From: Octopus vulgaris
Lineage: Eukaryota
Direction: 5' to 3'
DNA: 64,000 nucleotides
NCBI GenBank assembly: GCA_951406725.2
Contig: OX597814.1
Location: 53,258,001-53,322,000 of the forward strand
Notes under the pieces: generated by a model
Databases searched by the model: none
Seen by the model: only the letters and a program-made list of their open reading frames with translations
Told to the model about the DNA's origin: nothing
Program-made: the position numbers and the translations under genes
Shown: piece after piece, positions 21,170-62,710 of the stretch
Position numbering within the stretch: position 1 is the stretch's first letter
How the letters are laid out: every line of letters begins with the position of its first letter

Positions 21170-21560
21170 TATCAACTTAGTTATGGCTGGAAGATAACAG
21201 TTTATTCAAACTGGCTGCCCTCAGCTTCCACCACAGACTCAAGACGGCTCCGAAACCTGGCGCATTCATTCCTCAGTGTTCCTGGTAAGATCTTCCAACG
21301 CCCTCTTGGTCTTAGCAACCGGCTCGGCCTTGATGTTGCAAGCAGAGCCGTTGGTGTCTTTATCATTCGCGTCCCACACATAATAATATATAGGGTTATA
21401 ATCGGGCGAATTAGGAAGCCAGAAATTTTGATGGCACAGAGCTGGATCCTGCTGACACAGATTCGGTCTTCCAGCAGCAACCATCTCCAGCCAAGTTTTT
21501 ACTACAGTTTCCAGTAGCTTCATATAGTCGTCTGAAATGTGTCTAAGGCTTGTTCAAGAA
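21170..21560 (-). mobile_element. Tc1/mariner (maT/DD37D-like) transposase 3' remnant
   Basis: QQDPALCH...FWLPNSPDYNPIYYYVW...CARFRSRLESVVEAEGSQFE across ORFs 21266-21523 and 21202-21480. Confidence 0.8.
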
Positions 21561-21824
21561 TGTATTTTTGAACTCCGACCCTGTTCAATGAAATGGTGAA
21601 CTCTGGCATGCGAAGTTTCTAAATAGATTTCAAAGAATTGTATTACAATGTTGTTGTTTAGGCTAGGTCAGCATTAACTGAGTATACCCAAGACCAAACA
21701 CATTCACGACAATCATATCTTTTTAGTGGCATTCAGGATTGCATTATTTAACTTGTTCTTTCCATTCTTAAGACACCATACTGTGGTTTGAGAGATATGA
21801 TCACATTTTTTAACTATAGGCATA

Positions 21825-22719
21825 CGTGGTATGATCAATAAGTCTCCGGACTGTTACCATAGTAACGAAGGTAAAGTATGCAGAGTAAAGCCACTTGACA
21901 CAGATTGATCCTAAACTCTGCTGTGCATGCGCACTAAGTGTTAACGTTGTAGTTCACTTCCGATGTTTACAGCAGTACTTGGAAGTGACTTGTGTAGCGC
22001 GTGTTCGTCGCATTGACCATGACACAGAAAGATGAGCAGGGAATCTGCATCAAATTTTGCCAAGAGTTTGGCGATACCTGCTCAGAGACCTAAGCAAAGT
22101 TTTCAAAAAGTTTTCATCGTTCTCGATACAATTAAAGATATCTTCTGCACCTGAACCCGAGTGTCTTCTTGATCAGCTGAAAGCAGTTTCGACACAAGCT
22201 TGGCAGACACGCGTCTCATACCCAAATCTTCAGTGATAATGGACTGAACTGAACCGTAACTAATTTGCACATCCTCTGATGACTCACGGATGGTGATTCA
22301 ACGATTTCCCCTCACAGCTGCACGCACATCTGCAATGTTTTTTCTCAGTTCTGCTGGTTGCGGCTCTCCCAGATCGTTCGTCAAAATCGATATTTTTTCA
22401 GCCATTTTGGAAACATCTGAATCACTTATTCACTTGTGTGCGGTTCCTACACTTCTATTCATACACTTTCTGCAACTTTGCGTAGGCCTCTGAGCAGGTA
22501 TCTGCATGACTGCTTTCTCTGTCATGGTCAATTCCACGATCACACGCTACATACCTTCCTTCCAAGCGCTGTTGTAAACATCAGAAGTGAGCTAGTACGT
22601 TAAAACTTAGTGCGCATGCACATCAGCATTCAAGGTCAATCTTTGCCAAGCGGCTTCACTCGGCGTGCTTTTGTTCATTACTATGGCAACAGTCCGGATA
22701 CTTACTTGATCAGACCTCG
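21825..22719. mobile_element. Fold-back mariner derivative with two 5' ends (~270-bp imperfect inverted arms, TA flanks)
   Basis: TA|cgtggtatgatcaataagtctccggactgttaccatagtaa...ttactatggcaacagtccggatacttacttgatcagacctcg|TA. The + strand encodes MTQKDEQGICIKFCQEFGDTCSET; the - strand has a longer N-terminal remnant reaching EDLGMRRVSAKLVSKLL. Confidence 0.85.
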
Positions 22720-23659: not shown

Positions 23660-24324
23660 TTCCATCTACCTGCTAGACTTGCAAGGCTCCTCTTCCAAAA
23701 TTCACTTGTCTGTGACGAAACATACTCCTCCTGTTCTGACCTCGTCTACAGAATTCATATTTTTTACGTCCAAATGATTTTGAAGACTGCGGAATAAATG
23801 ATAATCAGATGGGGCAATGTCCGGCAAATATGGTGGGTGGGGAATCGTTTTCTATTGAAACTGCTCCAGTCTTTGGAATGCCATCCTCACTGTATGGCCG
23901 AGCATTATTTTAATAGAACACATTTCGTCTTGAAATCAAAGATAGTCGTTTTTCTTCTAGCGCCGACTTAAGCCGCTCAAGCAGTAGATCTCCTTTGTTA
24001 TCGTTTAGTTTGGGTTTAAAAGTTCAAAGAGGGCTAAACCTTTCATATCCGCCTAAACAGATAACAAAACCATACGTGGGTGAAGCCTTTATTAAACTCA
24101 TAAAGCAAAATATGCCGAATATACTCCTTTATCACTTCCATTATAGCTTTGAAAAAATAACTGTTAAAATCGAACTGCACTCTTTAAAACTTGCGCTAAG
24201 AATAAGGACAAGGTAAAACTACTACTTGCTTTTATAGCAAGTTGATGCAGGTAGTTTATCCCGCCTCCACTCCGACTTTTAGTTCATGGAACTGATAAAC
24301 CGCATTATTTATGGGATGACCCAA
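23660..24324 (-). mobile_element. Internally deleted mariner element
   Basis: - strand terminal inverted repeat (TIR)-like TA|TTGGGTCATCCCATAAATAATGCGGTTT. MEVIKEYIRHILLYEFNKG starts at 24141, and NNARP and IPHPPYLPDIAPSDYHLFRSLQNHL lie downstream. Confidence 0.85.
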
Positions 24325-24336
24325 TATATATATATG

Positions 24337-24388
<52 letters not shown>

Positions 24389-24651
24389 TATAATATATAT
24401 ATGTATATATACACACATATATTAATCAATCAATATAGGGTGGCAAAAAAAAATTTTGTAGAATTCTTCTGCCACCAGCGGCCTAGTAGGAAAAAATTAA
24501 ATAGTCATAAACCATTTTTACGTTCAACATCACAATCAAGGAACGGCCATAATAGGCCATTCACCCACTAGAAATAACAGCCAAAAGCTTTAACCGCAAA
24601 ATAACATTAATTCCGTAAACCAGGAGAAAATTGAAAAACTTTTACCCTGTA

Positions 24652-24758
24652 ATTTCTTAGACGATGCACCGTTTCATCTACCGTTTAATGGTAAACTAAC
24701 CTGATTAAATTAAATCAAGCCAATCCACCATAGGCCCTTAGACTCATCAGTAAGAAAT
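24652..24758 (-). ncRNA. Type I hammerhead ribozyme, copy 1
   Basis: AUUUCUUA-CUGAUGA-GUCUA...UAGAU-GAAA-CGGUGCAUCG-UC-UAAGAAAU; predicted cleavage 3' of the C at 24660. Confidence 0.88.
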
Positions 24759-25146
24759 AGCCAAGTCGGAACAGATATTTTTCACGAGGCATTCCTCTTG
24801 CTACCTCGGCAATATCTGACCTAAAATTTTCAAATCGTCGCACTCGCGCCAAATTTATCGGCAGCAAATAAATATAAGCCACCGATTCCATTACGGAACT
24901 AACCAGAAAATTCATAATTAATCAATCAATATAGGGTGGCAAAAAAAATTTTGTAGAATTCTTCTGCCACCAGCGGCCTAGTAGGAAAAAATTAAATAGT
25001 CATAAACCATTTTTACGTTCAACATCACAATCAAGGAACGGCCATAATAGGCCATTCACCCACTAGAAATAACAGCCAAAAGCTTTAACCGCAAAATAAC
25101 ATTAATTCCGTAAACCAGGAGAAAATTGAAAAACTTTTACCCTGTA

Positions 25147-25253
25147 ATTTCTTAGACGATGCACCGTTTCATCTACCGTTTAATGGTAAACTAACCTGAT
25201 TAAATTAAATCAAGCCAATCCACCATAGGCCCTTAGACTCATCAGTAAGAAAT
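25147..25253 (-). ncRNA. Type I hammerhead ribozyme, copy 2
   Basis: Same sequence as copy 1; cleavage C at 25155, 495 nt from copy 1. Confidence 0.88.
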
Positions 25254-25640
25254 AGCCAAGTCGGAACAGATATTTTTCACGAGGCATTCCTCTTGCTACC
25301 TCGGCAATATCTGACCTAAAATTTTCAAATCGTCGCACTCGCGCCAAATTTATCGGCAGCAAATAAATATAAGCCACCGATTCCATTACGGAACTAACCA
25401 GAAAATTCATAATTAATCAATCAATATAGGGTGGCAAAAAAATTTTGTAGAATTCTTCTGCCACCAGCGGCCTAGTATGAAAAAATTAAATAGTCATAAA
25501 CCATTTTTACGTTCAACATCACAATCAAGGAACGGCCATAATAGGCCATTCACCCACTAGAAATAACAGCCAAAAGCTTTAACCGCAAAATAACATTAAT
25601 TCCGTAAACCAGGAGAAAATTGAAAAACTTTTACCCTGTA

Positions 25641-25747
25641 ATTTCTTAGACGATGCACCGTTTCATCTACCGTTTAATGGTAAACTAACCTGATTAAATT
25701 AAATCAAGCCAATCCACCATAGGCCCTTAGACTCATCAGTAAGAAAT
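25641..25747 (-). ncRNA. Type I hammerhead ribozyme, copy 3
   Basis: Same sequence; cleavage C at 25649, 494 nt from copy 2. Confidence 0.88.
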
Positions 25748-25947
25748 AGCCAAGTCGGAACAGATATTTTTCACGAGGCATTCCTCTTGCTACCTCGGCA
25801 ATATCTGACCTAAAATTTTCAAATCGTCGCACTCGCGCCAAATTTATCGGCAGCAAATAAATATACGACGATTTGAAAATTTTAGGTCAGATATTGCCGA
25901 AGTAGCAAGAGGAATGCCTCGTGAAAAATATCTGTTCCGACTTGGCT

Positions 25948-26054
25948 ATTTCTTACTGATGAGTCTAAGGGCCTATGGTGGATTGGCTTGATTTAATTTA
26001 ATCAGGTTAGTTTACCATTAAACGGTAGATGAAACGGTGCATCGTCTAAGAAAT
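25948..26054 (+). ncRNA. Type I hammerhead ribozyme, copy 4
   Basis: Stem I atttctta (25948-55) / taagaaat (26047-54); CTGATGA 25956-62; stem II gtcta/tagat; GAAA 26031-34; stem III a-cggtgcatcg-t; GTC ending at 26046. Confidence 0.9.
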
Positions 26055-26442
26055 TACAGGGTAAAAGTTTTTCAATTTTCTCCTGGTTTACGGAATTAAT
26101 GTTATTTTGCGGTTAAAGCTTTTGGCTGTTATTTCTAGTGGGTGAATGGCCTATTATGGCCGTTCCTTGATTGTGATGTTGAACGTAAAAATGGTTTATG
26201 ACTATTTAATTTTTTCCTACTAGGCCGCTGGTGGCAGAAGAATTCTACAAAATTTTTTTTGCCACCCTATATTGATTGATTAATTATGAATTTTCTGGTT
26301 AGTTCCGTAATGGAATCGGTGGCTTATATTTATTTGCTGCCGATAAATTTGGCGCGAGTGCGACGATTTGAAAATTTTAGGTCAGATATTGCCGAGGTAG
26401 CAAGAGGAATGCCTCGTGAAAAATATCTGTTCCGACTTGGCT

Positions 26443-26548
26443 ATTTTTTACTGATGAGTCTAAGGCCTATGGTGGATTGGCTTGATTTAATTTAATCAGG
26501 TTAGTTTACCATTAAACGGTAGATGAAACGGTGCATCGTCTAAGAAAT
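26443..26548 (+). ncRNA. Type I hammerhead ribozyme, copy 5
   Basis: CTGATGA 26451-57, GAAA 26525-28, GTC ending at 26540. A C-to-T change in stem I keeps pairing as U-G. Confidence 0.87.
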
Positions 26549-26673
26549 TACAGGGTAAAAGTTTTTCAATTTTCTCCTGGTTTACGGAATTAATGTTATT
26601 TTGCGGTTAAAGCTTTTGGCTGTTATTTCTAGTGGGTGAATGGCCTATTATGGCCGTTCCTTGATTGTGATGT

Positions 26674-26682
26674 ATACACACA

Positions 26683-26759
<77 letters not shown>

Positions 26760-26769
26760 ATATATGTAT

Positions 26770-26803
<34 letters not shown>

Positions 26804-26875
26804 ATATAAAATATGTATACACACACACACATATATACATACATATATATATATATATATGTGTGTGTGTATGTA

Positions 26876-38986: not shown

Positions 38987-39520
38987 ATACACAAATATGA
39001 GAGAGAATCCACTATGTGGACGCTCTTATGCTAGAGATAGTTCCGCAAGGGGACTCAACCACTAAGAATTGTTCTCAAGAAAAATTTAGCACACTAAGAA
39101 CGCAAGCGAAATAATACTGCTCGTGTCTTTGACCTCGTGTTAATATATAGCGTGCAGTTCGACAAATTATATTTTATGACGTACCTCACCGATGATCTGA
39201 GGATAATTACGTAAGTAAATTTGCATAATTTATTAACAGTGAAACAATTGCATGGGGTTAATCTATATTTTTTTGTTATTTTTCATTTGTCCTGCTCGCT
39301 TGCGTTCTTAGTGTGCTAAATTTTTCTTGAGAACAATTCTTAGTGGCTGAGTCCCCTTGCGGATCTATCTCTAGCGTAAGGGCGTCCACATAGTGGATAC
39401 TCTCTCATATTTGTGTATTAATAATATTTACTGAATCTCAGTCTTTTATGCGCTAGACCACTGGTGTTTAAATTGATGTTATTAAATTAATATCCAATTT
39501 TTTCACCCCCTTTTTGACTT
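38986..39520 (+). mobile_element. Penelope-type non-autonomous insert in (TA)n with ~124-bp inverted repeat and a decayed hammerhead
   Basis: 38986-39109 is an imperfect reverse complement of 39296-39419. Between them lies acctca-CCGATGA-...-GAAA-CAATTG-CA-tggggt (39183-39258). Confidence 0.7.
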
Positions 39521-39532
39521 ATATATATATAT

Positions 39533-39607
39533 ATACTACAAAATTAGAAAATGGAGAAACATACTTAAATCAATAAAATGTTTCTCCATTTTCTAATTTT
39601 GTAGTAT
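39533..39607. repeat. Perfect 30-bp inverted repeat (15-nt spacer) at the start of another (TA)n-embedded insert
   Basis: atactacaaaattagaaaatggagaaacat / atgtttctccattttctaattttgtagtat. Confidence 0.95.
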
Positions 39608-39771
39608 TAATTTACGGTAATATTATTACCTTTACCCATATAATACAATAGATGAACTGATTGTTTGGCAATTTTTAACATCTATGTATTAGTCTTGTTG
39701 GGTACCTATCTAGCAGTATATTGGATATATGTTATCCCATGGTGGGTTGAATTTTCAACCCCTATCTCATT

Positions 39772-39860
<89 letters not shown>

Positions 39861-61923: not shown

Positions 61924-62445
61924 CAGGGTGAGGCAGGGAGGATGGTCGTTTTTGAAATGGCTATTTACTCAGCCCCAGTGGGAGGTAGATATGTCCGATA
62001 GGTACCATTCCGTCTGTGAGTTTTAGAAATTGTTTTTCTTTTCAAATGAAACCATGGCACTGTGGACGATAGAGCATCAAGTGTTTGCCTATGACAGTTA
62101 CGTGAAGAATAGCGAGTCTGTCAACAGTTCAGCGTGAGTTTCGGCGCCACTTCAACATTCACCGAAATCAGGCTGTTCCCACTCGTAACACAATCTTACG
62201 GTGGGTGAATGCACTTCGTACACGAGGTACACTAATGAATAGAAGACCGATAGGAGCGCCACGAACGGTACGGACCCCGGAAAATGTGGAAAAAGTCAGG
62301 CAAGCTTTGATACAGAGTCTAAATAATTTTGCTCGGAAGCATTCCACTGAACCATGCATCAGTAATCGATCGGTATGGCGTATTTTGCATGAAGACTGCA
62401 TTTCCACTCGTACAAATTGGTCATTGGGCAACAGTTGAAACACCA
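61924..62445 (+). mobile_element. Tc1/mariner 5' part (DUF4817-type HTH transposase), frameshifted
   Basis: TA|CAGGGTG terminus; ATG at 62054 MALWTIEHQVFAYDSYVKNSESV/TVQREFRRHFNIHRNQAVPTRNTILRWVNALRTRG...GAPRTVRTPENVEKVRQA...VWRILHED. Confidence 0.85.
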
Positions 62446-62449
62446 CAAG

Positions 62450-62710
62450 ACAGCAATACTCGGCCGCTGCACGAGTGCGTGAAGAACGGTTTCGTCGCTC
62501 TGCACACATCTCGGACAATTCCGCCTGATAGCGTTTCCGAATCTGTAGTTTATCTCGAACCGAAAGTTCTCCTCGGTAGCCCTGCCAAGCCAAGAATTTC
62601 TGGAATTTATTCATGGTAGTAGCGGGCCTGACCGTCCTCCGAAACAGTCGAGCTAGTTCATCCTCGTTGGTGCCTAGAGTTTCCTCAAGTACGTTCGTTC
62701 TTACCCACCT
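62450..62710 (-). mobile_element. L1/Tx1-like LINE C-terminal (zf-RVT-like) fragment
   Basis: FQKFLAWQGYRGELSVRDKL followed by a frameshifted CPRCVQSDETVLHALVQ. Confidence 0.6.

Follow-up and report, generated by a model that had tools for sequence, protein, structure and literature searches.

A hammerhead motif with a distal helix II hairpin and a predicted helix I–II pseudoknot in a likely non-LTR retrozyme family of Octopus vulgaris

In a 64,000-nucleotide stretch of the Octopus vulgaris genome, which we refer to as the window, a hammerhead ribozyme motif carries within its second helix a long hairpin rich in G-U pairs. The locus raises the question of whether this extension is a structure maintained in RNA and, if it is, what part of the ribozyme it serves and what kind of element carries it.

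Geometry of the motif and its array

The hairpin is formed on the plus strand by arms at 25975-25993 and 26000-26018, which enclose a 6-nt loop (25994-25999). All 19 positions are paired, 13 by Watson–Crick and six by G-U pairs with no mismatch, exactly as a preliminary description of the sequence had claimed. It forms the outer part of helix II in a type I hammerhead motif, whose helix II domain as a whole spans 25963-26030 between CUGAUGA (25956-25962) and GAAA (26031-26034). The hairpin is not a direct continuation of helix II; instead, a helix of 5 bp opens into a 7×7 internal loop, from which the hairpin emerges. The assignment to type I follows from the core CUGANGA...GAAA...UH, the three helices with helix I at the open end, and covariation in helices I to III. 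A search of the motif against Rfam returned no hammerhead match at the gathering score nor at E values up to 10, likely owing to the long insert in helix II. The features of the motif and its surroundings are as follows.

25942..25947, plus strand: UUGGCU just 5′ of helix I; the GGCU within it (25944-25947) is predicted to pair with the helix II internal loop as a pseudoknot
25948..25955, plus strand: 5′ side of helix I, paired over 8 bp with 26047-26054; 6 of the 8 pairs change on both sides
25956..25962, plus strand: core CUGAUGA; position 7 is U, A, C or G among relatives
25963..25967, plus strand: 5′ side of proximal helix II, paired over 5 bp with 26026-26030; 3 of the 5 pairs change on both sides
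25968..25974, plus strand: 7×7 internal loop, 5′ strand; GGCC at 25970-25973 is the predicted pseudoknot strand
25975..26018, plus strand: distal 19-bp hairpin with six G-U pairs and an AU-rich apex, from fold and covariation
26019..26030, plus strand: internal loop, 3′ strand (26019-26025), and proximal helix II, 3′ strand (26026-26030)
26031..26046, plus strand: GAAA, then a short helix III whose loop is self-complementary, then the GUC triplet ending at 26046, after which cleavage is predicted
26047..26054, plus strand: 3′ side of helix I, with which the predicted monomer of 494 nt (26047-26540) begins
25948-26054, plus strand: whole hammerhead motif
26443..26548, plus strand: second hammerhead copy on this strand, with one helix I change and a 1-nt internal-loop deletion
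25641..25747, minus strand: hammerhead copy
25147..25253, minus strand: hammerhead copy
24652..24758, minus strand: hammerhead copy
24416..25865, minus strand: 2.9 tandem units of ~495 bp, the 3′ end pointing left into (AT)n (TRF period 495, 99% matches; blastn layout)
25866..26673, plus strand: 1.6 tandem units in inverted orientation, then (AT)n; 3′ end ~133 nt beyond the second predicted cleavage site
24324..24422, unstranded: (AT)n microsatellite, left flank, likely target site
26682..26860, unstranded: (AT)n microsatellite, right flank

The window thus holds five copies of the hammerhead, two on the plus and three on the minus strand, in an inverted array whose two 3′ ends both face outward into (AT)n. 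The ~495-bp unit has no sizeable ORF, and the nucleotide at the cleavage position varies between C and A among subfamilies. Two further hairpins are present in the unit: one at 26230-26266, just before the ~234-nt 3′ end, and one at 25885-25935, where the sequence is variable and pairing is kept as judged by eye.

Folding of the two strands is markedly unequal. As RNA, the 44-nt hairpin reaches −21.7 kcal/mol on the plus strand (z −8.7, with 0 of 200 shuffles as good) and −5.3 kcal/mol on the minus strand (z −1.7, 17 of 200 shuffles as good), and in a 131-nt context the z-scores are −3.4 and −0.6, respectively. As DNA, the same sequence reaches only −3.3 on the plus and −2.3 on the minus strand, neither of which is significant against shuffles.

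Conservation of the hairpin and a predicted helix I–II contact

Because copies within the window's own subfamily are nearly identical, covariation inside it is uninformative, and we compared more distant lineages that are ~65% identical. The alignment comprises 30 hand-chosen representatives, namely the window's copy and 29 drawn from 64 clusters of 159 distinct motifs, with a structure drawn by eye from the same sequences. In this alignment, 89.3% of 1009 cells are paired and 22 of 41 pairs change on both sides; registers slid as a control give 27–46% paired cells, although the shuffle control ignores relatedness and hence does not yield a probability. Within the hairpin, two-sided changes occur at 8 of 18 pairs, and 83% of cells are paired even with short-arm lineages that are gapped or off register there. 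Across the 16 full-length rows in fixed register, G-U combinations number 50 and A-C combinations 2 among 284 cells, and the sense strand folds better in 51 of the 64 clusters and worse in 11. There are exceptions to perfect pairing: an A-A or U-U mismatch occupies hairpin pair 5 in most family A sister subfamilies, and A-C is found at the first helix II pair in some subfamilies. Three other organisms (B, C and D) carry the family too, with the same variants as the sister subfamilies and no gain of independent covariation. Taken together, the comparison of sequences supports the view that hairpin pairing has been kept on the ribozyme strand by compensatory changes across lineages. The proposal that the pairing is maintained at the RNA level on this strand, and the expectation of compensatory changes among family copies, are therefore both borne out.

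What is conserved, however, is pairing rather than form. Over the 64 clusters, the predicted arm measures 6–19 bp (median 14) with 0–6 G-U pairs (median 1), and an older lineage (L385-L390) has arms of only 7–8 bp. Neither arm length nor G-U count is conserved. The 19 unbroken pairs and six wobbles, which the preliminary description had taken as the signature of the hairpin, are peculiar to the window's subfamily. We consider it rather probable that the six G-U pairs are tolerated one-sided changes, mostly from A-U to G-U, as opposed to a required feature.

The other conserved element of helix II lies below the hairpin. In the window, 25944-25947 can pair with 25970-25973. The GCC of the internal loop's 5′ strand is exact in 54 of 64 clusters and the GGC 5′ of helix I in 46 of 64, and a GGC:GCC duplex of −3 kcal/mol or better is found in 54 of 64 clusters versus 5 of 64 for the loop's other strand, with copies cut at the insertion junction included in the count. 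The six pseudoknot pairs are paired in 90.5% of cells and change on both sides at three positions: a core G-C becomes A-U in the L144 subfamily, an outer U-A becomes C-G, and a U-A adjoining the core becomes G-U. The core is nearly invariant, so that it offers a single clear two-sided change, and 9 of the 30 rows lack pairing at position 9:41 beside it. Two relatives (L130 and L132) appear by eye to gain an extra G-C pair through changes on both strands. The motif pair also persists in the lineage whose hairpin is only 7–8 bp long (L385-L390). From these patterns we model the internal-loop GCC as likely pairing with the GGC beside helix I, in a pseudoknot that would hold the active shape. Pseudoknots of a similar kind are described as required for fast cleavage in other hammerheads (PMC3088659). 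The preliminary description had suggested that the long stem might provide tertiary contacts; such a contact is indeed predicted in the helix II domain, but it is better placed in the internal loop below the hairpin than in the hairpin itself.

The distal hairpin would then act as a clamp that closes this loop, and several other accounts of the arm have to be weighed against this one. The arm apex (25989-26002) consists, here and in relatives, of repeated 5-nt AU-rich units with short deletions between relatives, and presumably resembles AU-rich elements. These repeats and deletions suggest that slippage may set arm length. Taken further, the whole extension could be a neutral by-product, in which slippage of the 5-nt repeat lengthens a dispensable loop that is constrained only against misfolding the ribozyme or by the need for a compact circular RNA. 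Apex deletions of 5 nt and 9 nt (L299 and L246 compared with L298), the short arms of the older lineages and the composition of the unit, which is G+U rich throughout and folds better on the plus strand (−142 versus −81 for the circular monomer), would all accord with this account. The compensatory changes along the arm nevertheless imply selection for pairing, and an arm of at least 6 bp is predicted in 64 of 64 clusters, though extraction required a helix II domain of 40–80 nt. We therefore hold the neutral account to be unlikely, while according it some weight.

A second account assigns the arm a role in recognition, such that it is bound by the partner reverse transcriptase or by a host RNA-binding protein and its sequence and AU-rich apex matter beyond pairing. 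Consistent with this, the central ~27 nt hardly vary among family A subfamilies, which show 3–10% divergence elsewhere, the apex AUUUAAUUUAAU is common to lineages A, B, C and E, and the autonomous Hydra-like element discussed below likewise has a long helix II. Between lineages, however, the arm ranges from 6 to 19 bp and its stem sequence is replaced, and the arm of the autonomous element is unrelated in sequence, which leaves recognition a doubtful explanation.

The wobbles themselves might be relics of A-to-I editing, in which a hairpin that had once paired perfectly was edited and the edits were made permanent by reverse transcription. Five of the six wobble columns have A-U or U-A as their Watson–Crick alternative in relatives and can thus be read as A-to-G changes in the RNA; this fits selection for pairing, and editing would fit too. 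A to G is nevertheless the sole transition that keeps an A-U pair paired, and the 172 locus-private variants collected from 50 loci show no surplus of A>G. Counts of A>G versus T>C are 6 versus 4 among the 25 variants common to tandem units and 10 versus 16 among the 147 single ones, in a unit with 128 A and 185 T. An origin by editing is thus improbable. Least credible by far is the idea that the hairpin arose by chance in a satellite repeat or is what is left of a DNA palindrome there: the hairpin does sit in a near-identical, inverted tandem array, yet it is unstable as DNA on either strand, G-U outnumbers A-C as given above, and it belongs to a complete hammerhead whose other helices covary, in agreement with the earlier argument against such an origin.

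From the sequence, the arrays, their flanks and the conservation pattern, all of which are directly observed, we infer with fair confidence a joint reading in which the motif is the hammerhead of a likely non-LTR retrozyme and its distal hairpin is a clamp below which GCC pairs with GGC; the pseudoknot, the cleavage, the circles and the partner are the inferred parts of this reading.

The repeat family and its candidate mobiliser

The O. vulgaris genome (2.8 Gb, microsatellite-rich) contains many relatives of the unit. Exact patterns recover 426 cores of the window's subfamily genome-wide (control 0), 785 and 223 in two sister groups (controls 0 and 0) and 782 in more distant lineages (control 17), with the complete motif present in 82 of the 90 loci fetched for the distant set. 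Over 2,000 related cores are thereby identified, with helix II domains of 42–69 nt; motif extraction required a domain of 40–80 nt. Family A subfamilies are ~91–98% identical, and other lineages align to the unit at 62–71%; units measure 489–495 bp in family A and 478–482 bp in the older lineages. A further pattern, TGGC..core..GCCA, matches 889 times genome-wide against 77 in the control, but among the 100 matches listed, 20 further loci picked included only 7 family members, so that the figure of 889 is not usable as support. A search for sisters with a short helix II and the same helix I end gave 9 matches versus 3 in the control, three of which resemble an unrelated hammerhead family.

The arrays share a setting. 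Of 79 family A arrays, 75 reach a (TA)4 tract no more than 520 nt past their final cleavage site, as do 87 of 89 others; these counts carry no random-position control and come from a microsatellite-rich genome. The informative part is the clustering of array 3′ ends near 130 and 234 nt past the cleavage site. None of the sequencing runs that contain the family is recorded as RNA. Contigs of four runs guessed to be RNA cover the unit whole and show neither ends nor strand; head-to-tail joints occur in three of the four, and would equally fit tandem DNA, so that we do not count these contigs as evidence for expression. One contig in runs X8 and X19 joins the family A arm (behind 26022) to a different helix III and helix I, an arrangement not found in this genome (G000).

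The preliminary description had compared the motif with minimal Penelope hammerheads. We considered an autonomous Penelope-like terminal repeat and set it aside, there being no ORF with reverse transcriptase and GIY-YIG domains attached in the window or in 299 locus records; the element is instead retrozyme-like. Tandem non-coding units with one type I hammerhead each, dispersed in the genome, suggest that the repeat is likely a non-LTR retrozyme.

Such an element would depend on enzymes supplied in trans. At 344-889 on the plus strand, the window contains what remains of a GIY-YIG endonuclease of Penelope-like type; it has a CxCx5C linker and belongs to an older Hydra-like family, and Pfam gives only a weak GIY-YIG match to the window's ORF (E 0.048). 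Over 150 genome relatives of this remnant were scored, and the remnant led to young, intact Penelope-like ORFs. One of these, L190, encodes 955 amino acids with RWR, DKT, CxCx5C, CxxC and CxH motifs; Pfam returned no match for it, and a homologue search gave unnamed proteins. These motifs are marks of the Hydra clade, which inserts in (TA)n (PMC8557442), and they suggest that the L190-type element is Hydra-like, an assignment made from motifs and not from a tree.

The Hydra-like elements of this genome have two alternative 3′ ends, both leading into (TA)n, and a hammerhead is present at 18 of 20 loci; its helix II measures 50–85 nt, its helix I is 3 bp long and its helix III is palindromic. 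At L190:7813, L191, L199, L200 and other loci, the hammerhead stands ~2 kb past the stop codon and has a rod-like helix II of 85 nt and a perfectly palindromic helix III; in one Hydra-like subfamily, helix II measures 50 nt. A long helix II is thus not peculiar to the retrozyme in this genome. The stem had been singled out as unusual beside minimal Penelope hammerheads, and it is indeed far longer than theirs, but the contrast does not extend to the autonomous Penelope-like element found here. A 3′ end fragment of a young Hydra-like element also lies in the window at 39520-39851, with a small inversion, 93% identity to L190 and an end in (TA)n.

On this anatomy, the young Hydra-like Penelope element is most plausibly the mobiliser, as a candidate. 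The unit and the Hydra-like element have no common sequence beyond matches of 21 nt or less, and none of the 299 locus records screened contains a retrozyme copy fused to a Penelope-like ORF, three near cases having microsatellites or other repeats between the two. The proposed partnership accordingly draws on the shared target and the shared anatomy.

The steps of the proposed cycle would then be these. The distal arm would close the internal loop and present GCC to helix I, any change that preserves pairing being tolerated, and the pseudoknot would form the helix I–II contact. Tandem transcripts would self-cleave after 26046, probably aided by pairing between two self-complementary helix III loops. 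Palindromic helix III is a mark of dimer cleavage (PMC4209133), and in 61 of 64 clusters, which among them have 7 different sequences there, helix III and its loop are self-complementary over all 12 nt, a count inflated by an extraction pattern that preselected such sequences. Released monomers of ~490 nt could be circularised, and a Penelope-like reverse transcriptase/endonuclease acting in trans would, starting at either of two preferred 3′ ends, copy them into (TA)n and so yield 5′-truncated, inverted tandem arrays. Partial tandems with an inverted 5′-truncated copy are a pattern described for Penelope-like insertions (PMC8557442).

Other hammerheads were encountered alongside the family. 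A separate one with a helix II domain of ~32 nt occurs partly as inverted pairs (L065:1500-1560, L064, L069); a minimal Penelope-type hammerhead with a short helix II lies in another common repeat (L190:2690-2725, L223:721); and an inverted pair at L240:2147 (minus) and 2737 (plus) belongs to yet a different family, whose helix II is extended and whose helix III is palindromic. A pattern scan of metagenomes gave 54 matches, of which the two past the helix filter (L359 and L378) are a different short-helix hammerhead, unrelated to the family, with a duplicated core and an AU-rich hairpin. Elsewhere in the window, degenerate ORF fragments at 21202-22400 and 62106-62710 resemble what we take to be Tc1/mariner transposases.

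Relation to known hammerheads and significance

The closest counterparts are the metazoan non-LTR retrozymes, which are likewise non-coding tandems below 50% GC with one type I hammerhead per unit, a short helix III with a palindromic loop, and co-occurrence with Penelope-like elements (PMC7229834; bioRxiv 10.64898/2026.07.22.740005). The unit of ~480–495 bp modestly exceeds the descriptive range of 150–450 bp given for reported retrozymes. The greater difference is in helix II, where a domain of 42–69 nt stands in place of a 4-bp stem and short loop, and in the contact, which is predicted here as a Watson–Crick pseudoknot from an internal loop, unlike that of the reported elements. The accessible text of the two retrozyme sources (PMC7229834; bioRxiv 10.64898/2026.07.22.740005) makes no mention of (TA)n insertion or inverted arrays of the kind seen here. 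Circular RNA has been demonstrated for the retrozymes these sources report, whereas for the present family it is a prediction.

Penelope hammerheads and Hydra elements offer a second comparison, sharing the palindromic helix III, an enlarged helix II (6–8 bp), partial tandem and inverted insertions and (TA)n targets (PMC4209133; PMC8557442). The octopus unit differs from Penelope hammerheads, as these sources present them, in that it encodes no protein, its helix I has 4–8 bp and its helix II domain is far longer; a terminal repeat common to the unit and the local Hydra-like element was looked for and not found.

In the helix I–II contact, the motif approaches the pseudoknotted hammerheads, among them that of human C10orf118, in which base pairing between helices I and II replaces non-canonical loop contacts; such forms make up ~40% of the representatives in that study (PMC3088659). 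The loop regions of helices I and II in the octopus family show the conserved, covarying complementarity that defines this group, with a single core swap. The accessible text on that set describes no long distal hairpin past a helix II internal loop in a repeated element (PMC3088659).

A more detailed resemblance is to the type III hammerheads of toad and termite HDV-like RNAs, where helix I bears an internal loop with GCCR and an extra hairpin, and the GCCR pairs with YGGC in loop II (PMC7936874). Both architectures combine a 5-bp helix, GCCR on the 5′ strand of an internal loop, a capping hairpin and a YGGC partner on the other helix. In the HDV-like RNAs, however, it is helix I that is extended, with YGGC in the loop that caps helix II and a type III topology (PMC7936874); the octopus motif extends helix II instead, places UGGC next to an open helix I and is of type I. 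The likeness is one of mirrored architecture. We considered the HDV-like atypical type III class and rejected it, since the octopus motif is open at helix I and extended at helix II.

Retrozymes and pseudoknotted hammerheads are already known as classes. New are the architecture and the natural mutational series that the family provides. The accessible literature holds no description of such an architecture in a repeat, although the mussel hammerheads lacking canonical contacts (PMC7229834) may bear on its novelty, and the motifs are absent from the supplement of PMC8557442. With more than 2,000 cores whose long helix II domains escape Rfam, animal hammerhead counts may miss a whole class. The range of arm length at constant GGC:GCC makes the roles of arm and pseudoknot directly testable. 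More speculatively, the family may be an undescribed subclass that Rfam and descriptors built for short helices have overlooked, a type I counterpart, in mirror image, of the HDV-like GCCR/YGGC ribozyme. Its helix II arm would then be a handle by which a Hydra-clade Penelope reverse transcriptase picks up both the RNA of its own element and ~490-nt circular parasites of a long-lived lineage, inserting both into (TA)n. With a family that is still young and an intact Hydra-like ORF side by side in its genome, the octopus provides a specific pair in which to ask which reverse transcriptase mobilises animal retrozymes.
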